Below, in pieces: positions 2,396 to 54,027 of a stretch of DNA of 64,000 nucleotides. The notes under the pieces were generated by a model. It searched no databases and was not told where the DNA came from. It saw only the letters and a list, made by a program, of their open reading frames with translations. Within the stretch, counting starts at the first letter, position 1. Each line of letters opens with the position of its first letter. The position numbers were made by a program, and so were the translations under genes. Source of the DNA: Squalus acanthias (taxonomy: Eukaryota); assembly GCA_030390025.1 (NCBI GenBank), contig CM059432.1, positions 61,134,001 through 61,198,000 on the forward strand, in the 5' to 3' direction.

Positions 2396-3604
2396 GTGAT
2401 TAAATTAAATCCTGATCCCATCAATCTGAATTAAACTCACTCTCCCTAATGCTTGCATAATACATTCTCCCCTTCGATCAGCATATATGTCAAATGTCAT
2501 AAAATTATTTCCAGATGTATTGCCGTGTCACACATTGCAAAGGCAAGCATCAGTGTGCAGACAACGGGTTACCTGGCAGCTTTGCCAGCATTGGTAAACT
2601 GCTGTTTTTTTATTCCAATATACAAATTATAGTTCCAAACTTACACCATTTTCAGAGTGCATTTTAATTCAGACCAATTGTATGCTCTGAACAGATCAAA
2701 ATATATTCAATAGCTGCTATATAATTGGGACTTTAGATGGTATCTATAGTGCTTCCATCAAGACACATGCTACAAAATCCACATTGCCAATGCATACGGA
2801 ATTAGTGCACTCAAAGGACTGGAATGTGGCATGATTCCAAATTAAAACCGAGATAACTATGTTACAGTCACAGCACGCAAAGGTATCATTTTAATTCAAA
2901 TTGCACGTTTTGAGGTTTCATGATGAAATTTTCCAACAATAGCAATACTCCAGATCTTGCTGTAGGGAACATGATTTCTCCAGAGTGTATGATGAGGATG
3001 AGCAGGTCATTCTTCACAGAAACCTTGGAATAACTGGAGACAATTCAGTGTTTGATTATACTTATTTCTAAGATTAAGTATTCTGGGTATTTTTTGTCTT
3101 TTAGTAAAATATAGGAAATTACTCAGGTTTCTGGCCCCGTTTAATATTTATTAATCAAAATGACAGGTGCTCCCAGGTTTATTAGTGGCGTTTTTGTCCT
3201 GCATGAATTTCCTAATCTTGCCCATCAGTAACCAAGTTGCTTAACTACTCTTTAAGGTGCTTCTATCATTAATATAACAATGCATGGAGAAAAATAGATG
3301 TGTGCAATGATTACAAAGCCTGTATTAATAACCATGACATAAGCATAATTATAATTAACTTTTTTTTTTAAAGTGAACTTTTCAGTGCAACAGGAAAGCC
3401 AACTAATAGGTTCCAGAAAGCCTGATTCTGTAATTTAACGCATCAACTCTGCATCAACAGTACCAAGATCACGGAAGAAAATATTTAAGTTCTATAACTT
3501 GAAGAAAAGTACAAACACAAAAAGTACAGGACCAGAAATGATTCTGCAGTTCAGCTGACTGTACCCAAAAACTAATAATACTCAATTGCCCACTTCCTCA
3601 AAAA

Positions 3605-4540
3605 TCTAGCCTATTCTCCCCAAACTTTTTCCATACAATCTGCCTCCACTCCTTCCTGGGCAGTAGATTCCACATGTTCACCACCCTCTGTGTAAAGTGG
3701 GTTAACTTAAACTGTCCACTTTCCCCCTTATAAGATTGAGCCTGTGACATCTGGTGCCAGAGTTTGTGGCAATCTGGAACATATTTTGGGTGTTGAATTT
3801 GTCTATTTCCTTAAGAATCTTGAATGCTTGAGTAATATCTCCCTTAAGCTTTCTCTTCTCCACCTTAAATAAATCTCAGGCTCCTCAGTCTCTCCTCATA
3901 ACTCAGATACTTTAAGCTAGGTATTAGTTTAGTTGCCCTTTTTTGTACTGCCTCCAATGCCGTATATCATTTGCTGAAGTGTAGTGACCAGAATTGTACA
4001 CATTCCTCCAGGTCTGGCCATACCAGTGCCTTGTACAGATTCATGATCATCTCCTGGAATTTGTGCTGTATCCTCTGGCTATACATCCCTGTAAGCTTTT
4101 CTTACTACATTGTTTCTTTTATTGAGCTATCCAGATTCCTCTCCTATGTTATGTATGTCCTGTGGCCTAGAGCCATTTAGTTTATATTCTAAGTATTAAT
4201 TTTCTTCTCTAGTCTCATTATCTTGCATTTGTCCACATTAAATGCCATTTGCCACTCATTAGTCCACCTTTCCAACTTATTCAAATGGTTTTGTATTTGG
4301 TTTGCTCATTCTCTATTGTTTGAATTCTCCCCCACCTCAATTTGCCATTATCTGCAAACTTAGCTTTTCTTTCCTGAGCTCCAAATCATTCACTATAAAC
4401 AGTAATAACCTCAGCACTGATCCCTGTGGCATTCCGCAAGTGACCCCTTACCATGTCAATATACAATACTTTGCTTTTATGGTTTAGCCAATTTTCAATT
4501 CACCTCAGAAGCTTGCCTCCTACTCCATGCTTTCCTATCT
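3605..4540 (-). mobile_element. Old decayed CR1 LINE fragment
   Basis: Reverse-strand PQGSVL motif (CAGCACTGATCCCTGTGG near 4412) and an ECVQFWS-like motif near 3985-4010; heavily degenerate. Confidence 0.7.
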
Positions 4541-5467
4541 GTTGGGGCTAATTGGTTGTGTGACACACTACCAGTTAATGCAAAAACAAACGGCAAATGA
4601 TGCTTGCGTTAATATGGACCGAAGGGACCTATTTGAATGTAAAAGTTTAAGGTATTCAATACTTATGCATGGAAAGTGATATTGCTGTACTTACACAGAT
4701 ATAACTAAGGAAAGATGCGATGAGCTAGATGTATTGAAATGATATATTTTGTAATATTTTAATTGAAGATTCCATGACATCACAAATAGATGTACAAGCT
4801 AAAATAATCATTTCTGAAATCACACTGTAATAATGACTACTGGTGTTACTTTTCTGGGCAAAAATAGCATTCAATGAGTGGCAAGAACTGGCAAAGGAGG
4901 CAGGTCCTCCGCACAGAAAAACTTGACAGCCTCGACAATGAGGTAGATGAAGTGGTAGCTCATGAGAAGCCACCATATGCAGGCCGCACGTTGAGTCCTC
5001 CTACTGAAGTTCCTTGGGCTACATTGCTTAATGCTCCTGTATTTTTATCAGGAGCTTACTGAACAAATGGACTCCATTCTTGCAGTCCTTGAAAGGTTTA
5101 ATGATTGGTTATCTCCTCTGTAGCCAACTGTTTATGAAGGCCCAGTAGCAATTGCTAGCAAGTGGTATAGATATCCATGCAGGAGGGATTCCAGAACTAC
5201 ATAAAGAACCAGTTTCATCCTCCACAAGATCTGTGGCCATCCTGAGAAACAGCATCCAGTAGCACCATGCATGCAAAGGTGCAAGAGCAGTCAAATGGTA
5301 TTGCTGTCAAAGACAGTCTGTGTCACCATGAGGCAGGGACAAGTGGCTTTTGGCATCACTTCCAAAAGCATCAAGGCGCCAACAATTCACATAAAAGATC
5401 TTCCTGGCATTGGTGAAGGTGCACTGAAATCATTGCAATGTACCAGAGGCCAGATTCTATCTCAGGC

Positions 5468-7061
5468 AGGTGGCCATCTTAAAAGTGGATAAATCCCCAG
5501 GCCCAGACGAGATCTATCCCAGGCTGCTGTGTGAGGCAAGGGAGGAGATTGCAGGGGCTCTGACACAAATTTTCAGAACCTCTCTGGCCACAGGGGAGGT
5601 GCCAGAGGACTGGAGGACAGCTAACGTAGTACCATTATTCAAGAAGGGTAGTCGGGATAAACCAGGGAATTACAGGCCAGTGAGCCTAATATCAGTGGTA
5701 GGGAAATTATTGGAAAAAATTCTGAGGGACAGAATTAGTCTCCACTTGGAGAGGCAAGGATTAATCAAGGATAGTCAGCATGGCTTTGTCAGGGGGAGAT
5801 CATGTCTGACCAATTTGATTGAATTTTTCGAGGGGGTGACTAGGTGTGTGGATGAGGGTAGTGCAGTTGATGTAGTCTACATGGACTTCAGTAAGGCTTT
5901 TGACAAAGTCCCACATGAGAAACTGGTCAAGAAGGTAAGAGCCCATGGGATCCAGGGCAATTTGGCACATTGGATCCAAAATTGGCTTCGTGGCAGAAGG
6001 CAGAGGGTGATGGTCGAAGGTTGTTTTTGTGACTGGAAGCCTGTGTCCAGTGGTGTACCGCAGGGATCGGTGCTGGGTCCTTTGCTGTTTGTAGTGTACA
6101 TTAATGATTTAGATATGAATGTAGGAGGTATGATCAGTAAGTTCGCAGATGACACGAAAATTGGTGGAGTGGTAAATAGCGAGGAGGGAAGCCTCAGGCT
6201 ACAGGACGATATAAACGGGTTGGTCAGATGGGCAGAACAATGGCAAATGGAATTTAACCCTGAAAAGTGTGAGGTGATGCATTTTGGGAGGACTAACAAG
6301 GCAAGGGAATACACAATGAATGGTAGGATCCTAGGGAGGACAGAGGATCAGAGGGACCTTGGTGTGCATGTACATAGATCCCTGAAGGCAGCAGGACAGG
6401 TAGATAAGGTGGTTAAAAAGGCATATGGGATACTTGCCTTCATTAGCCGAGGCATAGAATATAAGAGCAGGGAGGTTATGATGGAGCTGTACAAAACGCT
6501 AGTTAGGCCACAGCTGGAATACTGTGTGCAGTTCTGGTCGCCACACTATAGGAAGGATGTGATTGCATTGGAGAGGGTGCAGAGGAGATTCACCAGGATG
6601 TTACCTGGGCTGGAGCGCTTCAGCTATGAAGAGAGACTGGACAGGCTGGAGTTGTTTTCCTTAGAGCAGAGAAGGCTGAGGGGGGACCTGATTGAGGTGT
6701 ACAAAATTATGAGGGGCATAGATAGGGTAGATAGAAAGGAACATTTCCCCTTAGTAGAGGGGTCAATAACCAGGGGGCATAGTTTCAAGGTAAGCGGCAG
6801 GAGGTTTAGAGGGGATTTGAGGAAAAACTTTTTCACCCAGAGGGTGGTTGGAATCTGGAACTTGCTGCCTGAAAGGGTGGTAGAGGCAGGAACCCTCACA
6901 ACATTCAAGAAGCATTTAGATGAGCACTTGAAACGCCATAGCATACAAGGCTATGGACCAAGTGCTGGAAAATGGGATTAGAATAGATAGGGCTTGATGG
7001 CCGGCGCAGACACGATGGGCCGAAGGGCCTCTTTCTGTGCTGTATAACTCTATGACTCTAT
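5468..7061 (+). mobile_element. Young 5'-truncated CR1 LINE with (CTCTATGA)n tail
   Basis: Uninterrupted RT ORF followed by a 3' UTR and an 8-nt tandem tail; the tail resumes at 7678-7690 after a MITE. Confidence 0.95.
5470..6981 (+). CDS. CR1 ORF2 reverse transcriptase, 5'-truncated (no endonuclease domain)
   Basis: 503-aa open frame with KSPGPD, NYRPVSL, QHGF, DFSKAFDKV, GVPQGSVLGP, FADD and RPQLEYCVQFW motifs. Confidence 0.9.
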   Translation: MAILKVDKSPGPDEIYPRLLCEAREEIAGALTQIFRTSLATGEVPEDWRTANVVPLFKKGSRDKPGNYRPVSLISVVGKLLEKILRDRISLHLERQGLIKDSQHGFVRGRSCLTNLIEFFEGVTRCVDEGSAVDVVYMDFSKAFDKVPHEKLVKKVRAHGIQGNLAHWIQNWLRGRRQRVMVEGCFCDWKPVSSGVPQGSVLGPLLFVVYINDLDMNVGGMISKFADDTKIGGVVNSEEGSLRLQDDINGLVRWAEQWQMEFNPEKCEVMHFGRTNKAREYTMNGRILGRTEDQRDLGVHVHRSLKAAGQVDKVVKKAYGILAFISRGIEYKSREVMMELYKTLVRPQLEYCVQFWSPHYRKDVIALERVQRRFTRMLPGLERFSYEERLDRLELFSLEQRRLRGDLIEVYKIMRGIDRVDRKEHFPLVEGSITRGHSFKVSGRRFRGDLRKNFFTQRVVGIWNLLPERVVEAGTLTTFKKHLDEHLKRHSIQGYGPSAGKWD

Positions 7062-13010: not shown

Positions 13011-13921
13011 TTTTCTCTTCTGAGGACTCGAGGGGCCGAATGGCCTACTCCTGCTTCTATTTCTTATATTCAAAATACTACCAGTGAAGGACTGCAGTGA
13101 TGCAGTGGGCAAGGACAATGACTGCAGTCCTAGCATGGTGCCTCACCCGTCAGCAGAGCATACTGGAAATTGGGGCATGCATGTGCCAGAATTTCTAGTA
13201 AGAACTCCTGACAGGTGAGGCTCCCGATCAGGAGTATTAAGTCTGAAAGTAATCCAATTATTTTTTCATCTCAGTTTCATATGCAGTCCAGACTGATGGG
13301 ATGAATCTCCTCTCTGCTGGCTTTAGACATCATAGGTGAAATAATGGCCATATGCTCATAGTATTAAACAGCTCAAAATTTGGCACTGAATAGCTTTCAG
13401 AATCCAAAAGCAAAATACTGCAGGCCCATGGATTAGTCACGCATCCATTTTATATGGGCGAAATGAGGCTGTAAAGTGGCTTGTGCTGATGACCAATGCA
13501 GCCTCCTGAAAATTGACCAGCTTCTTCACTGAAGAATGTGGCGTGCAATGGATCTGCCATGCAGGTCTCATTTCAAAACCTGCACTCATCTCATAAAACT
13601 CCACACTACCAGCAGTGCCTTGCAACTTTGGAGGGGGATATAAATTTGAATACTCTGTGGTCTACAAAGTAGCATTGTGTAACATTAGCATTTAATTAAG
13701 GTCACGTGTGGTCTGCAGTATATGTGGAAAAGAATCACTGAAAACATTCAATGTTAGCTTATCAGAGCTCTTCACAGAGTAAGATGGTACATTTCAATCA
13801 CACTCACAAAAGCTAACTCAGTCCTGCCACCAACAGATGAACTAATGTTAACGTTGAATTGAAACAGAAAATGCTGGAAATACTCAGCAGGTCAGGCAGC
13901 ATCTGTGGAGAGAGAAACAGA

Positions 13922-13956
13922 GTTAACGTTTCAGGTCGATGACCTTTCGTCAGAAC
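13922..13956 (-). ncRNA. Minimal type-I hammerhead ribozyme motif (antisense arm)
   Basis: Minus strand GTT-CTGACGA-A-AGGTC-ATC-GACCT-GAAACGTT-AAC with a perfect 5-bp stem II. Confidence 0.7.
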
Positions 13957-13994
13957 AGTTCTGACGAAAGGTACATCGACCTGAAACGTTAACT
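13957..13994 (+). ncRNA. Minimal type-I hammerhead ribozyme motif
   Basis: AGTT-CTGACGA-A-AGGT(A)C-ATC-GACCT-GAAA-CGTT-AACT: stem I AGTT/AACT, CUGANGA core, stem II, GAAA, and palindromic AACGUU in place of stem III. Confidence 0.7.
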
Positions 13995-14436
13995 CTGTTT
14001 CTCTCTCTACAGATGCTGCCTGACCTGCTGAGTATTTCCAGCATTTTCTGTTTTTATTTCAGATTTCCAGCATCCGCAGTATTTTGCTTTTGTATTAATG
14101 TTGAATTGACTGGTTTCATTTCACACAAATTAAATGACTGCTGTTGATGTCAAATTAAAGAATATTTTTCTATCACTGTACAGCAAATAGGGCATGGTTA
14201 ATGCAAAATACAGTCTATCTACATATTTAAAATCTTGCATCAGGCAAGCGCTTCCTGTCGACAAATCTTACTTCCTGTTGGCACAATTTTTGGTCACACT
14301 TGTGTCAACATTTATCACGTAAGCTCCGATGTCAACATGATGTTGTCACAGGCTCCAACTATTAGGTAGCTCTATGGACTGAGTTTCCCCTCGCAATTTC
14401 AACACCATATGAATTCTTCCTGTCAAGTAACACTTG

Positions 14437-15213
14437 GGGGGAAAAATTGGGTCGCGCCACCTTTGGGGCGCTGACTTCGCCGGGCCGCTACTTTTAGCAT
14501 ACCAAAGGTGGTGCGACCCAAAAAATTACCGCCCCCGCGCCCAAATTTCACCAGTAGTGCCCCAAGAGGAAGGCGGGGTGCTACTGGAAGTGCCCTGCCT
14601 CCCTCTTGGGGCGCTGCGAGTGAATATTGCGGTGCTGTGGCGCTGCGGCATGTCACGCCGCGGTACTGCAGGCCTTCCTCCCGTTATTAAAGGGGAGGGG
14701 CCTAGCGCAGCGCGACCTGGGGCCCAGCTAGGCCACCAGGGATTGGAGTGCTGGCAAAAGAGCCCGGCACTCAAGAGAAGTGCCGGGCTCATGGAGCGCA
14801 GCCGGCACTCCGCAGGGGGGGGGGGGCTGCAGAGGAGGCCGGGGACGGCAGAGGGGGCAGGTGCTGGCAGGCGGCCAGCAACATAAATGGCCACCTGGCA
14901 CCTCCCTTTTAATTTGCGCCGCCCTGGCCGCAGTTAGGCCCCTCGACCCCGTCGGACATAGCATCTGGCGGTATGTCAGGGGGCACTACCGAAGATCGCG
15001 GCCGTGGCGCGAGCAGGGCACTGCGCACGGCGATGACGTCATCGCCGGCGGCACCGTGCCACGGGGCGCTAACGGTTACCGCCACCACTAACCTCCCGCT
15101 GAATTTCGCAGGAGGCGTTGGCAGCGGCGCGCCCAGGCGCTAGTTGCTTTGTGCCCCGTTAGCGTCCTCTTAGGGCGCTAATGGGAGGCGCAAATCAACC
15201 GAATTTTTAGGCC
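14437..15213 (+). mobile_element. Harbinger non-autonomous element/MITE, family A (TSD TTG)
   Basis: Ends GGGGGAAAAATTGGG / CCGAATTTTTAGGCC, TTG at 14434-14436 and 15214-15216; subterminal sequences match both ends of the elements at 23241 and 31160. Confidence 0.85.
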
Positions 15214-16310: not shown

Positions 16311-16636
16311 AGTAGACGGGGGGAGGGATCTGGGGAAAATAACCAAGTCTAAAGACAAAACAAAAGATGAGAGTAAAGGTCAGACCAAGGTAAGGAGCAA
16401 GGGTAACATAAACGCTCATGGAACAAATACAGTGATAAAACAGAAGTATAAAAGGACTGTTAAAAATGAAGTAAAAGGAACAACAATGAAAGACAAATTA
16501 AACTACCTGTACAGCAATGTACACAGCATCCAAATTAAAATGGGGGAACTGGAGGCAATAATCCATAGCGAGGAACTAGAATAACTGAAACATGGCTACA
16601 TAAAGAACAGGACTGGCAACTAAATATTGCAGGTTT

Positions 16637-19515
16637 AAGAACATAAGAAACAGGAGCAGGAGTAGGCCATTCGACCCTTCAAGCCTGCTCCGCCATTCAA
16701 TGAGATCATGGCTGATCTTCTGCCTCAATTCCATTCACCGGCCTTATCGCCATATCCCTTGATGCCCTTACTAGTCAGAAATCTATCGACTTCTGTTTTG
16801 AATATACCCAATGACTGAGCCTCCACAGCCCTCTGGGGTAGAGAATTCCAAAGATTCACCACCCTCTGTGTGAAGAAATTTCTTCTCATCTCAGTCCTGA
16901 ATGGCCTACCCTTTATCCTGAGGCTGTGGCCCCTAGTTCCAGACTCCCTACCCAAGGGAAATATTCTCCCAGCATCCACCCTATCAAGCCCTGTAATAAT
17001 TTTGTATGCTTCAATGAGATCCCCTCTCATTCTTCTGAATTCAAGAGAATACAGGCCTAGTTTACTCAATCTCTTCTCATACGACAGTCCCGCCATCCCA
17101 GGAATCAATCTCGTGAACCTTCGTTGCACTCCCTCTATGACAAGTATATCCTTCCTTAGGTAAGGAGACCAAAATTGTACACAGTACTCCAGGTGTGGTC
17201 TCACCAAGGTCCTATATAATTGGAGTAAGACTTCTTTACTCCTGTACTCAAATCCTCTTGTAATGAAGGCCCGCATACCATTTGACTTCCTAATGGCTTG
17301 CTGCACCTGCACATTCACTTTCAGTGACTCATGTACAAGGACACCCAGGTCCCTTTGAGCATCTGCATTCCCCATTCTTTCATCATTTAGGAAATACTCT
17401 GCCTTTCTGTTTTTTCGACCAAAGTGGATAACTTCACATTTATCCACATTATATTCCATCTGCCATGTTCTTGCCCACTCACTGAGCCTGTCGAGATCCC
17501 CTTGAAGCCTCTTCACATCCTCTTCGCAACTGACACCGCCACCTAGCTTGTGTCATCAGCAAATTTGGAAATGTTACATTTAGTCCCCTCATCCAAATCA
17601 TTGATACAGATTGTGAATAGCTGGGGCCCAAGCACCGATCATTGCGGTACCCCACTAGTCACAGCCTGCCATCCTGAAAAAGACCCGTTTATCCCTACTC
17701 TTTGTTTTCTGTCTGTTAACCAATTCTCAATCCATGCTAGTATATTACCCCCAATTCCATGTGCCCTAATTTTGTTCACCAACCTCTTGTTTGGGACCTT
17801 ATCGAAGGCCTTCTGAAAATCCAGATACACCACATCTACCGGTTCTCCTTTGTCTACTCCACTAGTTACATCCTCAAAGATCTCCAATAGGTTTGTCAAA
17901 CAGGATTTCCCTTTCATAAGTCCATGTTGACTCTGCCCAATCTTACTATTAGTTTCTAAGTGCCCAGTTATTGCATCCTTTATAATAGATTCCAGCATTT
18001 TCCCAACTACTGATGTGAGGCTAACAGGTCTGTAGTTCCCCGTTTTCTCTCTCCCTCCTTTCTTAAATAGCGGGGTTACATTTGCTATCCTCCAATCTGC
18101 AGGAACCGTTCCAGAATCCTTAGAATTTTGGAAGATGACAACCAATGCATCCGCTATCCCAATGGCCACCTCTTTCAAAATCCTAGGATGTATGTCATCC
18201 GGTCCTTGGGATTTATCGACTTTTCGTCCCATTAATTTTGCTAGTACTATTTTTTTACTAATAGTAATTTCTTTAAGTTCCTCATTCTCGCCACACCCTT
18301 GGTTTTCTCGTATTTCTGGGTTGTTTTTTGTGTCTTCCTCCGTGAAGACAGAAACAAAGTATTTATTTAATTTCTCTGCCATTTCCTCATTCCCCATTAT
18401 AAATTCTCCCGTCTCTGACTGTAAAGGACCAACATTTACCTTTGCCAGACTTTTCCTTTTCACATACCGATAGAAGCTTTTACAATCTGTTTTTATATTT
18501 TTTGCTAGTTTGTGCTCATATTCCATTTTCCCTTTCTTTATCAATTTCTTGGTCCCCCTTTGCTGATTTCTAAAAAGATCCCAATCCTCAGGCTGACCAC
18601 TTTTTCTGGCACCTTAATAAGCTTCCTCCTTTGATGTAAAACTAGCTTTAATTTCTTTTGTTACCCATGGTTGGATCACCTTTCCTTTTGGGTTTTTATG
18701 CCCTAGAGGAATATATGTTTGTTGCAAATTATGCATTATTTCCTTGAATGTTAGCCATTGTATGTCCACCTTCATACCTTTTAGTGTAGTCTCCCAATCT
18801 ACCATGGCCAACTTGTCCCTCATACCCTTGTAGTTTCCTCTGTTTAGATTGAAGACCTTAGTTTCAGATTGGACTACATCACTCTCAAACTTAATATAAA
18901 ATTCAATCATATTATGGTCACTTGTCCCTAAAGGCCCCTTTACCACAGGATTATTGATTAGCCCTTTCTCATTACACAATACCAGATCCAGAATAGCCTG
19001 TTCCCTGGCTGGTTCCTCCACATACTGATCCAGGAAACCATCTCACATACATTCCAAGAATTCGTCCTCCACACCATTAGTGGTAATTTGATTTGCCCAG
19101 TCAATATGTAGATTAAAGTCCCCCATGATTACCATATTGCCCTTGTTACATACACTTCTAATATCTTGATTGATACTATGCCCTACATTACCATTACTGT
19201 TTGGTGGCCTATACACAACTCCCACCAATGTTTTCCGCCCTTTGCTGTTTCTTAGCTCCACCCAAACTGATTCCAGTTCTACATCACGATCTGCCAAGCC
19301 AAGATCTTTTATCTCTACCATACCGATCTCATCCCTTATTAACAGCGCTACGCCACCTCCTTTTCCTTTTTGTCTGTCCTTCCTAAATGTTGAGTACCCT
19401 GCAACCATGTCTTTGTAATGGCAATTACATCATAGCCATTTACTTCTATTAGTGCCATTAATTCATCCACCTTGTTGCGAATGCTACGTACATTTAGATA
19501 AAGTGCCTTCAACTT
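16637..19515 (-). mobile_element. CR1 LINE (endonuclease plus RT ORF2, fragmented) nested antisense in a CR1
   Basis: ORF pieces 19408-19043 (GGGVA, VYRPP, MGDFN), 19021-18614 (LDLVL, SDH), 18544-17639 and 17516-16725; tail AAGAACATAAGAA at 16638. Confidence 0.92.
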
Positions 19516-27570: not shown

Positions 27571-30500
27571 TAAGAACATAAGAACATAAGAAATAGGAGC
27601 AGGAATAGGTCAATTGGCCCCTCGAGCCTGCTCTGCCATTCAATAAGATCATGGCTGATCTAGGGCTCAAAGCCACTTCCCAGCCTGCTCCCCATAACCC
27701 TTCACTCCCTTATCTTGCAAAAATGTGTCTATCTCCACCTTAAATGTATTTAATGACCCCGCCTCCACAGCTCTCTGGGGCAGAGAATTCCACAAATTTA
27801 CAACCCTCTGAGAGAAGAAGTTCCTCCTCATCTCAGTTCTAAAAGGGCGACCCTTTATTCTGAGACTGTGCCCCCGAGTTCTAGATTTCCCCACAAGGGG
27901 AAACATCCTCTCTGCATCTACCCTGTCGAGCCCCCTCAGTATCTTATATGTTTCGATAAGATCACCTCTCATTCTTCTAAATTCCAATTAGTATAGGCCC
28001 AGTCTGCTCAACCTTTCCTCATAAGTCAAACCCCTCATACAATCTAGGAGCAGGAGTAGGCCATTCGGCCTGTCGAGCCTGCTCCACCATTCAATACGAT
28101 CATGGCTGATCATCCAAATCCAGTACCCTGTCCCTGCTTTAATCCCCACAGTACACATATCCCACCCTGCCCCTGTAACCCCACGTATTTAATTCCCCCT
28201 AACATATCCCATCACCCCACATATTTAATCCCCCCCTAACACTAAGGGTCAATTTATCATAGCCAAATCAACCTAACCCGCACATTTTTGGACTGTGGGA
28301 GGAAACCGGAGCACCCGGAGGAAACCCACGCAGACACGGGGAGAATGTGCAAACTCCACACAGACAGTCACCCGAGGTCAGATTCGAACCCGGGTCCCTG
28401 GCGCTGTGAGGCACCAGTGCTAACCACTATGCCACCGTGTCATCTCTGGAATTAACCTAGTGAATCGTCTCTGAACTGCCTCCAATGCAAGTATATCCTT
28501 CCTTAAATAAGGAGACCAAAACTGTACACAGTACTCAAGGTGTGGTCTCACCGATACGTTGTACAGTTGTAGCAGGACTTCCCTGCTTTTATACTCCAAC
28601 CCCCTTGAAATAAAGGCCAACATTCCATTTGCCTTTTTGATTACTTGCTGTACCTGCATGCTAACTTTTTGTGTTTCATGCACAAGGACCCCTAGGTCCC
28701 TCTGAACTGTAGCATTTTGTAATCTCTCTCCATTTAAATAATAGTTTGCTTTTTTATTTTTCCTGCCAAAGTGTATAACCTCGCACTTTCCCACATTATA
28801 CTCCATCTGCCAAATGTTTGCCCACTCACTTAACCTGTCTATATCCCTTTGCAGATTCTTTGAGTCCTCTGCACAACTTACTTTCCCACCCACCTTTATA
28901 TCATCTGCAAACTTAGCTACATTACACTCGATTCCTTCATCCAAGTCATTAATGTAAATTGTAAATAGTTGGGGCCCCAGCACCGATCCTTGTGACACCC
29001 CACTAGTTACCGTTTGCCAACCAGAAAATGACCCATTTATCCCGACTCTCTGCTTTCTGTTAGTTAGCCAATTCTCTATCCATGCTAATATATTACCCCC
29101 AACTCCGTGAGCTCTTATCTTATGTCGTAACCTTTTATGTGGCACCTTATCGAATGCCTTCTGGAAATCCAAATACACCACATCCACTGGCTCACCCTTG
29201 TCCACCCTGCTTGTTACATCCTCAAAGAACTCCAGCAAATTTGTTAAACATGATTTCCCTTTCCTAAAACCATGCTGACTCTGTTTGACTGCAGTATGTT
29301 TTTCTAAATGCCCTGCTACTGCTTCCTCAATGAAGGAATCCAGCATTTTCCCAACGACAGACGTTAGGCTAACTGGTCTATAGTTTCCTGCTTTCTGTCT
29401 CCCTCCTTTCTTAAATAGGGGTGTTACATTTGCGGTTTTCCAATCCACTGGAACCTCTCCAGAGTCCAGGGAATTTTGGTATATTGCAACCAATGCATCC
29501 ACTATCTCTGCAGCCACTTCTTTTAAGACCCTGGGATGCAGGCCATCTGGTCCAGGGGACTTGTCGTCTTTTAGTCCCATTATTTTACCGAGTACTATTT
29601 CCATAGTGATAGTGATTGTCTTTGCTTCCCCACTCCCTGTGGCCCCTTGATTATCTATTATTGGGATGTTGTTAGTGTCTTCTACAGTGAAGACAGATGC
29701 AAAATATTTGTTCAGAGTCTCTGCCATTTCCCCGTTCCCCATTATTAATTCCCCAGTCTCATCCTCTAAGGGACCAATGTTTACTTTAGCTACCCTCTTC
29801 CTTTTTATATACCTGTAGAAGCTCTTACTATCTGTTTTAATGTTTCTTGCCAGCTTACGCTCATAATTCATCTTTTCTCTCTATTATTTTTTTAGTCATC
29901 CTTTGCTGGTTTTTTAAAATTTCCCAATCCTCTGGTCTCCCACCAATCTTGGCAACATTGTTTGCCTTTGTTTTCAATTTGATACCATCCTTTACTTCCT
30001 TAGTTAGCCACAGATGGTGCTCCCTTCTCTTAAAATCTTTCTTTCTCACTGGAATATATTTTTGTTGAGAGTTATGAAATATCTCCTTAAATGTCCGCCA
30101 CTGCATTTCAACTTTCTTACCCTTTAATTTGTTTTTCCAGTCCACTTTTGCCAGTTCTGCCCTCATGCCATTATAATTGCCTTTGTTTAAGATCAGGACA
30201 CTGGTTTGAGATGCAACTTTCTCACCCTCCAAGTGAATTTGAAATTCAACCATGCTATGATCACTCTTTCCTAGAGGATCCTTTACTATGAGATCATTTA
30301 TTAATTCTGTCTCATTACATAGTACCAGATCCAAGATAGCCTGCTCCCTGGTTGGTTCCATTACATACTGTTCTAGGAAAGCATCCCGGATGCACTCTAT
30401 GAACTCCTCCTCCAGGCTACCATAGCCAATTTGATTTGTCCAATCAATATGGAGATTAAAATCACCCTTGATTATTACCGTACCTTTTTTACAGGCCTCC

Positions 30501-30843
30501 ATATTATTTGTTGATTTATACTCTGTCCAACAGCATTGCTACTGTTCGGGGGCCTATAGACTACGCCCACCAGAGACTTTTTCCCCATATTATTTTTTTA
30601 TCTCCACCCAAACCGATTCTACATCTTGATCTTCTGAGCCAATATCACTTCTCACCACTGCACTGATCCCATCTTTTACCAACAAAGCCACCCCACCTCC
30701 CTTTCCTTTCTTTCTATCCTTCTGAATTATCATATACCCTGGAATATTCAGTTCCCAGCCCTGGTCGCCTTGCAACCACGTCTCTGTAATGGTGATCAGA
30801 TCATACCCATTTGTATCTATTTGTGCCGTCAACTCATTTAACT
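27571..30843 (-). mobile_element. CR1 LINE with near-complete ORF2 (endonuclease plus RT), interrupted by a SINE
   Basis: ORFs 30832-30590 (ITETWL, GGGVA), 30502-29861, 29871-28420 (483 aa RT) and 27987-27667; tail (TAAGAACA)n at 27571. Confidence 0.95.
28039..28439 (-). mobile_element. tRNA-derived V-SINE (HE1-like) with CR1-derived 3' tail
   Basis: Head with A box TGGCATAGTGG and B box GGTTCGAATC; V-domain GTGGAGTTTGCACATTCTCCCCGTGTCTGCGTGGGTTTCCTCCGGGTGCTCCGGTTTCCTCCCACA; tail matching the CR1 3' UTR; short TCAT duplication. Confidence 0.9.
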
Positions 30844-37897: not shown

Positions 37898-37995
37898 CAG
37901 AAGGGTCACAGACCTCAAATGTTAACTCTGTTTCTCTCTCCACAGATGCTGCCTGGCCTGCTGAGTGTTTGCAGCATTTTCTGTTGTTATTTCAT
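37898..37995 (+). mobile_element. Degenerate copy of the Penelope-like mini-element (hammerhead core broken)
   Basis: GAAGGGTCACAGACCTCAAATGTTAACTCTGTTTCTCTCTCCACAGATGCTGCC… matches 52799-52895. Confidence 0.8.
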
Positions 37996-41511: not shown

Positions 41512-43622
41512 ACATACGAACATATGAACATACGAATTAGGAGCAGGAGTAGGCGACTCAGCCCTTCGAGCCTGCTCCGCCATTCAATAAGATCATAGCT
41601 GATCCGATTACTCCACATTCCTGCGTACCCCCGATAACTTTTCATCCCCTTGCTTACCAAGAATCTATCTACCTCTGCCTTAAAAATATTCAAAGACTCT
41701 GCTTCCACCTGACCTCTGAGGAAGAGAGTTCCAAAGACTCACGACCCTCTATGAGAAAAAATTTCTCCTCATCTCTGTCTTAAATGGGTGACCCCTTATT
41801 TTTAAACAGTGACCCCTAGTTCTAGATTCTCCCACAAGAGGAAACATCCTCTCCACATCCACCCTGTCCAGGCCCCTCAGGATCTACAGGCCCAAAAATT
41901 CGGCCGTTCTCGGGTGAGTACTCAGTGTGTACTCACCCGTATTCATTCCCGAAGTGCTGGATTCCTGCATGCACTGCGCATGCGCGGGAAACCAGCACTT
42001 CCGGTATGGCGAAGGGGGCGGTTCCTAGGTGAACCGCGTGCGCACTAGAGGCTGCGCGCACGCAGCACACTTAGGTTTTTTTTCAGGTTTCAACGCGAGG
42101 GTAAGTATGGAAGATTCTACACAAGTAAAAAGGAGGCGTAAGACCCCTTTTGAACAAGGTAAGTAATTAATTAAGTGTCATTTTAAATTTTTTTCAACAG
42201 GTTTATCTTTTTTAGAGACTTTAGAGAAAGGTAAGTTTATTTTTATAACTTTTAAAAAGTATTTTAACTTTTTCAAAAATTTAAATTTTTGTTTAAAGTG
42301 GTTAATTTATTTCACTATAGTTATTTTATTAATGTGATGGTTTTTAAAAAACATTTATTTGAGGTTTAGCTGTTCTTTTGGGGCCGATTTCAATTCACAG
42401 ATTTGACAGGTCCTGTCAAATCTATGAATGAAAGATGGTCTGCTGCCATTGGCTCTCCATGGCCCACGTGATCCCAGGGGTCGCATCGCACTAACTGCGC
42501 CCCTGGAACATGTAAGCACTGCGCACCGGAACTAGGGAGAGGCCCAGGACCCGAAGTTGCTGCGGGGGCAAACAAGGACGGCAGACGCGGTAGGTGATAT
42601 CGCGCGCGATCCTTACCCCCGCGGCAAGCCTCCGAATCGAATTTCTAGGCCTATATGTTTCAATCAAGTCACCTCTTATTCTTCTAAACTCCAGCGGATA
42701 CAAGCCTAGCCTGCACAACCTTTCCTCATAAGACAACCCGCCCATTCCAGGTATTAGTCTAGTAAACCTTCTCTGAACTGCCTCCAACGCATTTACATCC
42801 TTCCTTAAATAAGGAGACCAATACTGTACACAGTACTCCAGATGTGGTCTCACCAATGCCCTGTATAACCTCCCTACTTTTGTATTCAATTCCCCTCGCA
42901 ATAAACGATAACATTCTATTAGCTTTCCTAATTACTTGCTGTACCTGCATAGTAACGTTTTGCGATTCATGCACTAGGACACCCAGATCCCTCTGCATCT
43001 CAGAGCTCTGCAATCTCTCACCATTTAGATAATATGCTTCTTTTTTATTCTTCCTGCCAAAATGGACAACTTCACATTTTCCCACATTATACTCCATTTG
43101 CCACATCTTTGCCCACTCACTTAACCTATCTATATCCCTTTGTAGCCTCCTTATGTCCTCTTCACAATTTACTTTCCTACCTATCTTTGTGTCATCAGCA
43201 AATTTAGCAACCATACCTTCGGTCCCTTCATCCAAGTCATTTATATAAATTGTAAAAGGTTGAGGCCCCAGCACTGATCCCTGTGACACACCACTCATTA
43301 CATCTTGCCAATCAGAAAATGACCCATTTATGCCTACTCTCTGTTTCCTGTTAGCTAGCCAATCTTCTATCCATGCCAATATGTTACCCCCTACACCATG
43401 AGCTTTTATTTTCCGCAATAACCTTTGATGTGGCACCTTATCAAATGCCTTCTGGAAATCTAAGTACAGTACATCCACCGGTTCCCCTTTATCCACAGCA
43501 CATGTTACTTCCTCAAAGAACTCCAATAAATTGGTTAAACATGATTTCCCTTGCACAAAACCATGTTTACTCTGCCTGATTACTTTGAACTTTTCTAAGT
43601 GCCCTGCTATAACGTCTTCGAT
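41512..43622 (-). mobile_element. 5'-truncated CR1 with (TTCGTATG)n tail, TSD AATAGT
   Basis: AATAGT at 41506-41511 and 43623-43628; RT motifs; very similar to the copy at 50016-52697. Confidence 0.92.
41889..42651. mobile_element. Harbinger-type MITE, family C (inverted relative to 32077-32842)
   Basis: TIR GGCCCAAAAATTCG versus reverse complement GGCCTAGAAATTCG; body is the reverse complement of 32077-32842; TSD imperfect. Confidence 0.85.
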
Positions 43623-44322
43623 AATAGTGGGGAACCAAGGGGCTAATAAGAGTGAGGAACCTAAAGTAATTAATATCAGTAGAGAAAAAATACTTGTGAA
43701 ACTAATGGGACTAAAAGCCAACAAATCCCCAGGGCCTAATGGCCTACAGCCTAGGGTTCTAAAAGAGGTGGCTGCAGAAATAGTGGATGCACTGGTTGTG
43801 ATCATCCAAAATTCCCTAGATTCTAGAACAGTCCCAGCGAATTAGAAGGTAGCAAATGTAACCCCACTATTCAAGAAAGGAGGGAGAGAGAAAACAGGGA
43901 ACTGCAGGGCAGTTAGCCTGCCATCAGTCTTCAGGAAATGCTGGAATCCATTATTAAGGAAGTGGTAACAGAGCACTTAAAAAATCATATGATTAGGCAG
44001 AGTCAACATGGTTTTATGAAAGGGAAATCTTGTTTAACCAATTTATCAGATAAAGGGGGACCAGTGGATGTAGTATATTTGGATTTCCAAAAGGCATTCG
44101 ATAAGGTGCCACATAAAAGATTGCTACGCAAGGTAAGGGCTCATGGGGTTAGGGGTAATATATTAGCATGCATAGAGGATTAGTTAACAGACAGAAACAG
44201 AGAGTAGGGATAAACGGGTCATTTTCAGGTTGGCAGGCTGTAACTAGTGGGGTGCCGCAATGATCAGTGCTTGGGCCTCAGCTATTTACAATGTATATTA
44301 ATGACTTAGTTGAAGAGATCAA

Positions 44323-45225
44323 GGGGGAAAAATTCAGTTGGTTGCGCCTCCCGTTAGCGCCTTAAGAGGGCGCTAATGGGGCGCAAATCATCTAGCGCCC
44401 GGGCGCGGCCATGTTTGTGCTGCTCGCAAAATTAACTAGACATTTTGCGGTGGCGCTAAACACTACCGCCACGATCTCCTGCGCCGGCAGATCGTGACGT
44501 CAGTCGAGTGCGCAACGCCCCGGTATCGCCCCGGAGCGGATATTGAGTGGCGCCCCCTGCCTTACCGCCTGCTGATAGCAACGACAGGTTGAGGGGAGCG
44601 TTTTGCAGTCAGGAAGGGACTGGGGGAGCGCTATTTAAAGGCGACCGCTTCCTGCCTTTTATTGTTGGTGACATTTTTGAACCACGCTTTCTGAGAGAGA
44701 GAGAGAGAGAGAGAGAAAGACTTCTGGAGAGATTCAACGCTGTGTGAGGGAGTTTTGGGTACTGAGCAGCACTTTGCAGGTTCATTTTGATTTGCCTTTC
44801 CTTGTATCGATTTAGAAGAGACTGTGGGGGCTGCACTCGGAGCACTTTCCCTGGTACTCTCCATTGTTCTTTCCAGCAGATTTGATGTACAGCTCTTTCC
44901 AGGCCGAGATTCAAGGCTGCAATGAGCAGGATGTGGATGGAAAGCAAGATCAACCCTCCCCTTTAAGAACTGGCCCGTGCCATTGTGTGTGTGTTCCATT
45001 GCTGACTGACATCACATGAGCTTCGCCAGCGCTCTGAGGTAGCGCCTCGCTCCTCGGCCTTTGCGCCTTAAGACAGGTGTGAAGCGCCTGATTTAGCACT
45101 CCAATCACCTCCAGGGGCGATAAAAGTCAAGTTTGCAGTCGGTGGCGATAATTAGCGCCAGGCGCTAATCTTTGCGCCCGGCCGATAATTGCGCCCCAAA
45201 TGGGGCGATACTGAATTTCTCCCCC
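44323..45225 (-). mobile_element. Harbinger non-autonomous element, family A (TSD CAA)
   Basis: GGGGGAAAAATTCAG / CTGAATTTCTCCCCC, CAA at 44320-44322 and 45226-45228; splits the CR1 RT just before FADD; internal (GA)n at 44693-44716. Confidence 0.92.
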
Positions 45226-45807
45226 CAAGTGTAATGTATGCATGTTTGCTGATGATACAAAGCTAGGTGGGAAAGTAAGCTGTGAGGAGGACACAAAGAG
45301 CCTATAAAGGGAAATAGACAGGTTAAATGAGTGGGCAATAAGGTGACAGATGGAGTATAATGTGAGGTTATTCACTTTGGTAGGAAGAATAGAAAAACAG
45401 AATATTTTTTAAATGGTGATAAACTATTAAATGTTGGTGTTCAGAGAGATTTAGGTGTCTTCGTACAGGAACCACAGGAAGTTAGCATGCAGGTACAGCA
45501 AGTAATTAGGGAGGCAAATGGCATGTTGGTCTTTGTTGCAAGGAGATTGGAGTACAAGAGTAAGGAAGTCTTACTACATTTGTACTGAGCTTTACTAAGA
45601 CCACACCTGGAGTACTGTGCAGAGTATTTGTTTCCTTATCTGAGAAAGGATATACATGCTTTAGAGGTGGTGCAACGAAGGTTCACTAGATTGATCCTTG
45701 GGATGAGAGTGTTGTCCTATGAGGAGAGATTGATTAGATTGGGCCTATACTCTCTGGAGTTTAGAAAAATGAGAGGTGATCTCTTTGAAACACATAAGAT
45801 TAACAAA

Positions 45808-46012
45808 AGAACATAAGATGTAGGAGCAGGAGTAGGTCATTTGGCCCCTCGAGCCTGCTCCGCCATTCAATAAGATCATGGCTGATCTGATCTTGGCCTC
45901 AACTCCACTTCCCTGCCCGCTCCCCATAACCCTTGACTCCCTTACCTTTCAAAAATCTGTCTATCTCCACCTTAAATATATTCAATGACCTAGCCTCCAC
46001 AGCTCTCTGGGG
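45808..46012 (-). mobile_element. CR1 3' fragment nested antisense in CR1
   Basis: AGAACATAAG tail and reverse 3' UTR inside the plus-strand CR1. Confidence 0.8.
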
Positions 46013-47859
46013 AAGAGGGGGATTGAGGGGGTAGATGCTGAGAGGTTGTTTCCCCTAGCTGGAGAGTCTAGAACCAGGGGGCATAGTCTCAGAATAAGGG
46101 GTCGGCCATTTAAGACTGAGATAAGGAGGAATTTCTTCACTCAGAGGGTTGTGAATCTTTGGAATTCTCTACCCCAAAGAGCTGTGGATGCTGAGTCATT
46201 GAATATATTCAAGGCTGAGATCGATAGATTTTTGGACTCTAGGGAATCAAGGGATATGGGGATCGGGCAGGAAAGTGCAGTTGAGGTCAAAGATCAGCCA
46301 TGACCTTATTGAATGGCGGAGCATGCTCGAGGGGCTATATGGCCTACTCCTGCTCCTAATTCTTATGCACTTATGTTATTTGCTGCCTCTTTGAACAAGC
46401 TTTTGGTCATCTGTCCTGATATCTCCTTCTGTGGCTCAGTGTCAAAAATGTTTTTATTGATATCGCTCTTGTTAAGCACCTTGGGATGTTTTGCCACGTT
46501 AAAAGCGCTATATAAATACAAGAATACAAGTTGTTGTTGTTGTTGAAGATTATAGGACTAGAAATTAGATTTGCTAATGAGACGGGTGGCAAGTCAGCGG
46601 CAGGATAGCTCCCCGTGCCACCATGAGGATGAGGCCCATGTCAAATTTGGCAAAATGCCTTGTCTGCATTTAACCGGTGAGCTGCAGATGCCGTTCGGCC
46701 ATCCCGACACAACTCGCTGGTTTAGAGGTCACCAATTTGGGCGGGCCACTAATCCAGCAGCTGCCCTCAGATAGGTCCTTGGCGGTTGGTGCATACAGGA
46801 GCGGGGCAAGCACAGACTGACAACAGCCCATGGTAGTACTGTGGAGCTAGGAGGGCAACACAAACCCAGAAAAATTGAATGGATTATGTGCAGTGCATGT
46901 TCCTCTCATTTTCTGCCCAATTTGGCATTGGGGTACTAAAAAAGCCATTAGACCCCTGATTGGCAAAACGAAGTCTACCAATTTGTCAGCTGGTGCACTT
47001 CCGGGGAAGAGAATCAGGCATGGGATGCCCTGATTTTGCACCCAAAAAACCAGGCACAAAGTATATGAATTTTTGCTCCAATAGTACTTGGTAGTATAAT
47101 GTAACCTCTGTTATTGATAACTCCAGAAGCAACATCTTTACAGAATTCACCAGCTTGGTAAATGCCTATACAATTTAATCCCATATTTCTTCTACAATTC
47201 ATTTAATTTATCTGAACTTATTGCCTTTATGAATTTTAGATAATATTTTAACTTTCCTAACTTTTAGTAACCTTTAGATCAATTGGCAAAATTTACATTT
47301 CACTGACATTTCCTATTTTCATTTTGCAATAGCCTTTGTGAATCAGATATAGTTTGAATCAGTCTTGCTGCAAACTTAGCCTCTGACCAAAAATTAAAAG
47401 AATTTATGGACTTTGTTTCAACAATGATTTGTGGCAGAGTATTCCACATCCAAACTGCACTCTGTAAGAATGTTTTCCTAACCTCCACTTTAATTCGATT
47501 TGTGATTATCTTTGTGCCTTCTTGTTACCATCTTGCTGACCAGTGAAAACAATAAACCACTAGTTACATCAAAGTAAGAAACAGTGGGCTAGAAAAGTGG
47601 AATTATGTTTGTGGAGAATACCACAAAAAAAGGATGCCTATACCAAGGGCAGCAATTTTGCCTTCTTTCGCATGTTTATCCTGCACATGTTTGGATTATC
47701 CCACAGCATTAAAGATAGAGGTGGGTAGAGGATTCTATTATTATGTAAATTTATTATCTTCAGTACCTCAGTTCTTAAGGAATTTATAAATTAAAATAAT
47801 AATAGTATTTATAAAGGTAGGAAGACTGTTTCACATCACCACCTTACACCACCTGACGT

Positions 47860-52200: not shown

Positions 52201-52773
52201 TTTAAGTTTAAAATACTAGTCTTGGACCCACTCTTCCCTCTCTCAAACTGAATGTAAAATTCAATCATATTATGATCGCTGCTACCTAGGGGCGCCTTCA
52301 CTATGAGGTCATTAATTAATCCTATATCGTTGCACAATACCAGGTCTAGTATAGCCTGCTCTCTGGTTGGCTCCAGAACGTGCTGTTGTAAGAAAATTTC
52401 CCGAAAACATTCCATGAACTCCTCATCTATGCTACCTTTGCCCATCTGATTTTTCCAGTCTATATGCAGATTAAAATCCCCCATGATTATTGCCATACCC
52501 TTCTGACAAGCTCCCATTATTTCTTCCTTTATACTCCATCCTACCATGTAGTTACTGTTAGGGGGCCTGTACACCACTCCCACAAGTGACTTCTTGCCTT
52601 TATTATTTCTCATTTCTACCCAAACCGCTTCTACACCCTGGTTTCCTGAACTTAGGTCATCCCTCTATATTGTGCTAATACCATCATTAATTAACAGTTG
52701 CGATCAGTTTCAAATGCGGAATAAAGGCGAATGCTGCCAGTTCGCCATCATCCCGACCGCAAATTCCGGGCCC
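49282..52773. mobile_element. Probable MITE split by a CR1 (pieces about 49282-50015 and 52698-52773)
   Basis: Inverted terminal match ATTTGCGGTC (49291) / GACCGCAAAT (52755); GC-rich ends with AT-rich middle; AGTT at both CR1 junctions; left end degenerate. Confidence 0.55.
50016..52697 (-). mobile_element. CR1 LINE (partial endonuclease plus RT) with (TTCGTATG)n tail
   Basis: ORFs 52613-52017, 51964-51131 and 51165-50128; small deletion/frameshift near 51135. Confidence 0.95.
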
Positions 52774-52790
52774 ATATGTTGATATCTGGT

Positions 52791-52825
52791 GTTCTGACGA
52801 AGGGTCACAGACCTGAAACGTTAAC
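52791..52825 (+). ncRNA. Minimal type-I hammerhead ribozyme motif
   Basis: GTT-CTGACGA-A-GGGTC-ACA-GACCT-GAAACGTT-AAC; stem II is kept with a different loop from the 13957 copy. Confidence 0.7.
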
Positions 52826-52924
52826 TCTGTTTCTCTCTCCACGGATGCTGCCTGGCCTGCTGAGTGTTTCCAGCATTTTCTGTTGTTATTTCAGATTTCC
52901 AGCATCTGCAGTATTTTGCTATTG
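52794..52924 (+). mobile_element. Penelope-like mini-element with perfect 17-bp TSD
   Basis: TGTTGATATCTGGTGTT at 52777-52793 and 52925-52941; body matches 13961-14092. Confidence 0.88.
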
Positions 52925-54027
52925 TGTTGATATCTGGTGTTGACTTTCACAGCCATTTTCATATGTAACTTAAATTATCCTTTGGAAAGTTCAGGAGGCT
53001 GAAGTCCAGGAGGGATCAATGACTTCCAATCATTTTGAAAACTGCAAAATATCAGGAACTGGATCATTAACTTTCCAGGCCCAATAAAATCTGCTATCTT
53101 GACAACTTCAGAAGTTCTCAGAATTCTCCCTCTTCCCAACTATAGACCAGAGGTAGAGGAAGAAATAATTAAGGTCACTAATGGATTCTAACGCCAAGGA
53201 GTTCAGTAGAGATAGGTTTTATCCGTCTATCTTGCTGGTTTTCTATACTGCTTCAGTTAAAGCTAAGAACATAGTATGCTGAAAGTTGCTTTATTGCAGA
53301 TGGCAACCAACTGAACACGTTTGAAGTTGTTCCTAGCAATGATGTTTACATTTTGGTGGGGTTCTTTTTAAAGCATTCCATCATTTGTTAAATTTGTTCT
53401 CTAAAAGTTGTTTTTTCTCATAAGAAATCACCAATAGCTTCACCAAAACATCCTCAGGAAAGCATGAGATGCATAAGCGTGTGTAATATTAACAAAAAAA
53501 CACACTACAGCCGAAGGTACTTTATACAATGGTAAAAGAGAAAGTCATATGGATAACACCCTAACATCATATTGTCTATGATCTTAAAATGTTTTAAATA
53601 AGTGGTAGGGCTATAGTTTTTGTCTTTCGTAATTCTTGCAACAACAAAAAATTAAACACGAGTAAAAAGTGGGATTGTTCACCTCTATATTTTTTCTAAA
53701 ATTAGCTAAGCTGGGAATTTCAACCCCCATGTTGTTTGTGTTTCTTCCTGATTGCTTCTGCATTATACAAAGGATGTTGGTATAAAAAAAGACAGACATA
53801 CAACACAGCATAGCTCATTATCCTCAAAGTGACAATAGGGTCAAAATACAATTACATGAACAACTAGCTACGTGTTTGTTGTAAAGGGATGACAATGGGA
53901 TGTCTAAGTCTAATATAATTTGATTTCTAATCATTGTTTTTGGTAATTTTCATCCAAAGTCCTACTCTGACTGTTCATTCTCCTCCCTTGATTTGATATC
54001 GCCTGCAGGTACAATTAGTGCTGCTCT

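Follow-up and report, generated by a model that had tools for sequence, protein, structure and literature searches.

A 232-bp palindromic insert in the genome of Squalus acanthias (positions 13863-14094 of the window, the 64,000-nucleotide stretch analysed here) is a stub of a Penelope-like element (PLE), and its two head-to-head arms were probably laid down during one insertion, as twin-primed run-off cDNAs of a capped leader. Comparison of related copies indicates, with high confidence, that the stub was made anew at insertion and was not copied from a palindromic master. We lean slightly towards the full chain of events, in which capped Pol II transcripts would begin with the first base of hammerhead stem I, and strong-stop-like run-off and twin priming would then yield thousands of palindromes.

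As an element, this stub of a known retrotransposon class is ordinary; it is useful as a mechanistic clue. The layout of an inverted 5′-truncated copy plus a one-sided tail has been published, and neither a pile-up of PLE copy ends at a start site, nor a cap-like G, nor the run-off reading was found in the literature searched, mostly the main texts of papers outside subscription journals. Thousands of independent minimal insertions in two families allow exact predictions, namely the start site, a capped uncut template, and priming by both nicks. If these are true, the inserts would constitute a genomic record of start site, sense template, and twin priming in at least two PLE families, and the palindromes would be promoter-less double hammerheads. 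Annotators should not take such palindromes for MITEs, miRNA precursors, or retrozymes.

The insert and its parent elements

The insert is flanked by direct repeats identical at 14 of 15 positions, as described in the original prediction of an approximately 232-bp insert with a 15-bp target site duplication (TSD) carrying one mismatch. Its arms measure about 95 and 137 nt, and it contains no ORF. The outer inverted arms (13857-13941 and 13974-14058; 85 nt) share 96% identity, and the inner ones (13942-13956 and 13958-13972; 15 nt) are 100% identical around a 1-nt spacer. Folded as RNA, the insert reaches -189.2 kcal/mol (z = -31.9), with none of 200 shuffles equally stable, which supports the predicted hairpin of about 190 nt but not its 1-nt loop: the folded loop has 3 nt, and an insertion in loop II of the plus arm creates a 1-nt bulge. 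The features are listed in Table 1. The solo copy is bounded by a 17-bp TSD (52777-52793 and 52925-52941) that overlaps both copy ends. A GC-rich repeat with several hairpins, MITE-like and with other copies in the genome, adjoins the insert (window 14430-15200).

Table 1. Features of the palindromic insert and related copies in the window
Feature	Positions	Strand	Basis or remark
Left TSD, 15 bp	13848..13862	+	Repeat comparison, TSD lengths in the family
Inverted short arm, parent pLTR from putative +2 to about +96, without tail	13863..13956	-	Inner preferred 3′ end
Minimal type-I hammerhead motif, stem II 5 bp, stem I 3 bp, predicted cut after 13925	13922..13956	-	
Long arm, parent pLTR from the putative transcription start (+1 = A13957) to tail end	13957..14094	+	
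Minimal type-I hammerhead motif, predicted cut after 13990	13957..13994	+	
Plus hammerhead: stem I; core; extra A	13957-60/13991-94; 13961-67; 13968		
Plus hammerhead: stem II; GAAA	13969-72/13979-82; 13983-86		
One-sided 36-nt 'tail' between two preferred 3′ ends	14059..14094	+	
Right TSD	14095..14109	+	The parent sequence past the tail has the same first 3 nt
Solo single-arm copy, same family, 92%, same 5′ boundary	52791..52925	+	
Tail-less fragment, same family	37900..37994	+	

Each arm is, by sequence comparison, the pLTR end of a PLE with reverse transcriptase (RT) and GIY-YIG domains, called Neptune-type here on account of its linker alone, and the Penelope origin first proposed is thereby confirmed. 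Many of the best matches to the right arm extend upstream as a common long sequence; in the translation of this parent sequence, RT motifs are followed by a CX4CxxC linker and GIY-YIG/CCHH residues. RT and GIY-YIG motifs are present in broken copies (L083, L085, L358, and L391), and Pfam matches of the parent to RVT_1 (E 6e-5) and GIY-YIG (E 0.002) both lie below the curated cut-offs. CCHH residues with two Cys between GIY and YIG, the definition given for EN+ PLEs in PMC8557442, were recognized by eye in the parent, and the CX2-5CxxC linker between RT and EN takes the form CX4CxxC in L083, L358, and L391. A GIY-YIG family search of the genome returned one match, which belongs to a different element. 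The EN+ PLE layout (pLTRs flanking the ORF, an inverted 5′-truncated copy, and a one-sided tail) is present; two full-length pLTR-ORF-pLTR copies, both with disrupted frames, were identified (L358 and L391), and longer insertions (L083, L085, L087, and L393-396) have the same head-to-head layout. In the 5′ pLTR the arm continues through the tail, and the main ATG follows about 36 nt later, which means that in the element's mRNA the arm doubles as the leader. The genome (3.7 Gb) contains 27,030 exact copies of the parent junction and 8,241 and 2,619 exact copies of the two tail variants; the 51 arms found in 900 kb extrapolate to about 2e5 genome-wide, divergent relatives included. Contigs from four sequencing runs, covering four other organisms, contain the arm with loose ends at the same three sites; such contigs cannot show RNA ends, and the search of sequencing runs listed no RNA run as holding the arm.

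Several side observations concern the parent copies. The arm holds an upstream ATG (window 14013-14094) opening a hydrophobic frame of about 30 codons in register with the main ORF; in most copies a stop lies 7 codons before the main ATG, and L232 is without that stop (pairs compared: L357/L234, L358/L235, and L391/L232). Many small contigs (L082-L085 and L207-L222) contain the same long inverted PLE insertion at 91-100% identity, in L082 next to an 83-bp tandem array; this insertion is an amplified unit. A full-length parent copy in L357 is interrupted by a 392-aa open frame (2622-3797, minus orientation), presumably a Harbinger-type transposase by its motifs. Across L237-L356, the ORF-side continuation past the tail is matched equally by long and short copies (2.2 vs 2.3 nt), suggesting tandem or circular templates as the source of the long copies too.

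A second PLE family, unrelated in sequence and also carrying RT, GIY-YIG, and a CX4CxxC linker, was found on the minus strand of L070 (4390-6350) and in L095, L144, and L397-L411. It has a minimal hammerhead of its own, 36,903 exact tail matches, 3,632 short palindromes, and two 3′ ends 40 nt apart. These loci also include a third variant with the same palindromes, tail, and boundary.

Formation of the palindromes at insertion

The insert's exact centre has 128 genome matches, against 27,030 for the parent junction. Short-centre palindromes number 1,553 in the genome, and 37 different centres were found among 47 loci, the analysable ones of the first 50 such palindromes on chromosome C1. At 67 loci (75 fetched, less 6 duplicates and 2 without a pair; two of the 67, L007 and L120, are mis-paired), the arms of one copy differ by 4.3%, compared with 9.0, 9.3, and 9.2% between copies for left-left, right-right, and left-right comparisons, respectively; in an unselected set, with L007 and L120 left out, the values are 4.6% within and 8.9-10.2% between copies. 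Subfamily sites are concordant between arms in 57/59, 57/58, and 54/54 cases, part of which could be due to later gene conversion. Of 22 loci chosen only for a centre identical to the insert's, 10 carry the tail on one side and 12 on the opposite side. Copies of a master palindrome would share a single centre and a single tail side and would carry differences specific to each arm; none of these was seen, which argues that the palindromes were made at insertion.

The same data do not support the earlier proposal that a retrozyme-like element was mobilised as a palindromic unit, since centres are mostly unique, the tail lies on either side, and the arms track subfamily. A non-autonomous retrozyme-like palindromic RNA that is itself transcribed, self-cleaves as a dimer, and is reinserted by Penelope proteins would accommodate the 128 copies of the insert's centre, the hammerhead core intact in 103 of 145 arms, and the derivation of animal retrozymes from pLTRs described in bioRxiv 2026.07.22.740005; yet copies sharing that centre span several subfamilies with the tail on either side, arm-specific differences and tandem arrangement are absent, the hairpin abolishes the hammerhead fold, and core conservation across the family's arms (96.7%) is near that of the flanks (94.8%). 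Arm phylogeny largely refutes this alternative, and we consider it very improbable. By the definitions given in PMC7229834 and bioRxiv 2026.07.22.740005, the insert also differs from a Non-LTR retrozyme, being a single head-to-head unit between TSDs that does not propagate as a unit of its own, and, having no upstream TATA-like box, the stub likely lacks its own promoter.

A further set comprised 120 tail-anchored copies (90 among the first 100 listed of the 8,241 variant and 30 of the 2,619 variant), taken from the first 50 Mb of one chromosome and not selected for their 5′ ends. An inverted partner accompanies 46 of them, and 31 of these partners end at parent positions 2455-2474, the inner 3′ site, without a tail; nine copies are mini palindromes like the insert. 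Two sites separated by about 36 nt are preferred for the outer ends. TSDs in the family measure 11-20 bp (27 of 38 at 14-16 bp), and tail-end microhomology averages 1.9 nt in 38 copies, compared with a shuffle control of 0.55 nt that understates the null, estimated at 0.7-0.9. A MITE, that is, a non-autonomous DNA transposon with long terminal inverted repeats, would likewise give a dispersed palindrome of about 190 bp, but the TSD varies in length (10-20 bp), the ends are unequal with a varying left end, and the arms are the end of an RT-encoding element. The fixed-length TSD and symmetric fixed termini of MITEs are absent here, and the variable TSD and PLE origin refute this reading, to which we give practically no credence.

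In the reading preferred here, a PLE protein would nick both target strands about 15 bp apart, and the two nicked 3′ ends would prime RT within a sense RNA, each from a different start site and either on one shared molecule or on sibling molecules. RT would start 100-137 nt downstream of the cap, and each cDNA would run off the 5′ end of the RNA, likely a capped Pol II start, giving a strong-stop-like product. The two cDNA ends would then be joined bluntly, through 1-3 nt of microhomology, or with a few filler bases; for the insert, this would place the start of the plus arm at +1 (13957) and that of the minus arm at +2. Alternatively, a single cDNA might have snapped back and primed itself, or an antisense template might have done so, to give the inverted arm without priming from both target nicks. 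The near identity of arms within a copy fits such a route, and self-priming on an antisense template is among the proposals made for Adineta PLEs in PMC3846280. However, junctions are asymmetric and often contain filler bases, the inner ends of the two arms gather at one sense-RNA boundary, and the short arm's outer end lies at a discrete site, as for a second RT start. In addition, the arms of 10/99 copies differ at two or more of 8 diagnostic sites, although mutation can explain most of these. We therefore regard self-priming as rather unlikely, if less so than a retrozyme.

The arrangement recalls L1 in its twin-primed inversion. In L1 twin priming, two primers copy different stretches of one RNA, whereas both arms of the insert copy the same stretch. 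L1 also shares the untemplated G at full-length 5′ ends, by the accounts in PMC4859970 and PMC3287187. Another likeness is to PAc (Poseidon) of Anolis carolinensis, for which PMC11167929 demonstrates in vitro two internal RT starts bracketing the tail, and describes cutting and extension of both target strands and insertion that needs no hammerhead cleavage. Unlike PAc as described there, the parent here has a Neptune-type Cys linker, its hammerhead and tail precede the main ATG, where those of PAc fall inside the ORF start, and primer-template microhomology of 1-3 nt is seen in the parent family. EN+ PLE insertions, as depicted in PMC8557442 (Fig. 2) and for Adineta Pen2a in PMC3846280, share the inverted 5′-truncated pLTR, the one-sided 30-40 bp tail, head-to-head arms, variable TSDs, and a pLTR hammerhead; the tail length, also given in PMC11167929, matches the 36 nt of the insert. 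They differ from the present palindromes, in which the arms comprise the leader only, number in the thousands, and end at a sharp boundary matching a core promoter in two families. How inverted pLTRs and tails are made, and whether on sense or antisense template, is called unresolved in PMC8557442 and PMC3846280.

The inner boundary and a putative core promoter

In the tail-anchored set, 37 of the 82 copies reaching the 5′ side of the hammerhead stop within 10 nt, and of the 45 that pass this boundary, 5 end within the following 60 nt; against the downstream rate of about 4% per 10 nt, the pile-up has p about 1e-29. Palindrome arms stop 0-7 nt before the hammerhead core in 91 of 94 cases. The boundary base is A, with an initiator match at +1 in all four pLTRs, and 47 of 71 long copies have a TATA-like box, non-canonical in family 1, at -32..-29, which is unique within 270 nt in three of the four pLTRs. 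Consensus core promoters have TATA at about -31 and initiators of the form BBCABW or YYANWYY. These features make it fairly likely that the boundary is a transcription start, where Pol II initiation would be set by the TATA-like box at -31 and the initiator A+1. In D. virilis Penelope, transcription is reported to start within the pLTR (PMC2377424), and TATA/Inr-like motifs are noted in an Adineta pLTR (PMC3846280).

A G precedes +1 in 9/15 copies ending there, compared with 28/102 at other end positions (p 0.015, in a post hoc test on small samples). Untemplated 5′ G has been ascribed to cap copying in L1 and SVA (PMC3287187 and PMC4859970); the G-rich opposite arm can often supply a G before +1, so the extra G is support and not proof. 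Many arms stop 1-4 nt short of the proposed +1, and 22/94 keep 1-2 parent bases upstream of it, about half of which are explained by CAG/CTG microhomology. Seventeen of the 37 boundary copies have neither a TSD nor an inverted partner nearby, and 14 remained unexplained after a wider search.

The second family offers a comparison, its boundary being drawn from 49 incidental arms plus a palindrome listing. Its 5′ ends peak at an initiator-like A, 7 nt before the core, with 8 exactly there, and 23/34 ends fall within -7..-1, some through subfamily mismatch. A TATA-like box occurs at -30..-32 in 6/6 pLTRs. All ten copies ending at +1 have a preceding G, and a hand count of bases before +1 in the palindrome listing gave 23 G, 3 A, 3 T, and 11 parent-like C.

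The same de novo stub could arise with the sharp boundary marking an RT stall or a processing site, such as the stem I edge, a U-run, or a 3′ splice site. The family 1 boundary also reads as a Y-rich CAG acceptor beside a U5 run, stem I adjoins the boundary in both families, and a D. virilis intron is stated in PMC4209133 to end at the 5′ end of helix I. The family 2 boundary, by contrast, has neither AG nor a long U-run, no recurring exon-1 sequence was seen in 47 junctions, and no intron-less long copy was present among the 120; nor would an extra G, or TATA at -31 in both families, be expected of a stall. A stall or processing site is thus unlikely, though it deserves more weight than self-priming, and a transcription start is the reading retained.

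Hammerhead motifs carried by the stub

Both strands of the insert contain CUGACGA-A-stem II-GAAA-CGUU, with a stem I of 3 bp on the minus arm and 4 bp on the plus arm. The core (CUGANGA/GAAA/UH), an extra nucleotide after A9, and palindromic 15.2-16.2 are present, so that a minimal Penelope-type type-I hammerhead (min-HHR) with palindromic stem III on each strand was correctly recognized. Metazoan PLE min-HHRs, as characterized in PMC4209133, share this core, the unpaired nucleotide 9/10.1, the short helix I, and the palindromic 15.2-16.2; they differ in having G-C at 10.1-11.1, where the insert has A-U/G-U and 145 arms have G-U (75), A-U (58), or other pairs (12). The same source reports dual hammerhead motifs on opposite strands, 100-700 bp apart, in Schistosoma; here the motifs are about 10 nt apart. 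Non-LTR retrozymes, by the descriptions in PMC7229834 and bioRxiv 2026.07.22.740005, are likewise short, non-coding, pLTR-related, and equipped with a type-I hammerhead, but they are head-to-tail repeats that give circular RNAs, whereas the insert stands alone, has its arms head-to-head, and is not reproduced as one unit.

Hammerhead model searches, suggested with the original prediction, gave a divided answer: a hammerhead descriptor found 25 matches in 900 kb of unselected genome and none in each of 5 shuffles, and in Rfam, at E up to 10, no hammerhead model matched the insert, the hairpin models that did being sub-threshold. Conservation and covariation, whose absence would have counted against the original prediction, were both seen: the core is intact in the 103 arms mentioned above, and covariation within the family is limited to A-U/G-U at 10.1-11.1. 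Between the two PLE families, stems I, II, and III are altered on both sides, the three stems of family 2 differing from those of family 1 by compensatory changes.

Self-cleavage in this family appears doubtful from these sequences, considering the non-G-C pair at 10.1-11.1, the GUU triplet, a core barely more conserved than its flanks, and the poor cleavage of min-HHRs, which is recorded for in vitro conditions in PMC4209133; dimeric PLE hammerheads were treated by Lunse et al., as cited in PMC6765202. When the hammerhead is folded within the whole insert, pair probabilities of stems I and II are 0.000, and the model thus agrees with the suggestion that the hairpin would sequester the ribozyme in a read-through RNA. 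Both hammerheads of the insert are intact, which implies that the RNA template was uncut and that cleavage did not precede insertion, as PMC11167929 would lead one to expect; we infer that the hammerheads are passengers copied from uncut RNA.

Cleavage as a source of 5′ ends was considered and set aside. Among tail-anchored copies, 7/103 end at the hammerhead cut site (p 0.03, uncorrected), and four of the seven lie directly against the terminus of a different repeat, at TTA and with no TSD, for which reason these ends are not counted as evidence of cleavage. The four (L240, L290, L307, and L317) are cut at GTTAAC around the cut site, and their resemblance to ends produced by cleavage is probably due to later insertions at TTA.

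Elsewhere in the window, many related pieces whose long frames run on the minus strand, probably the remains of LINEs, lie at 5400-7000, 16600-19500, and 28400-30800, with more such fragments at 42600-46400, 50000-52700, and 62500-64000.
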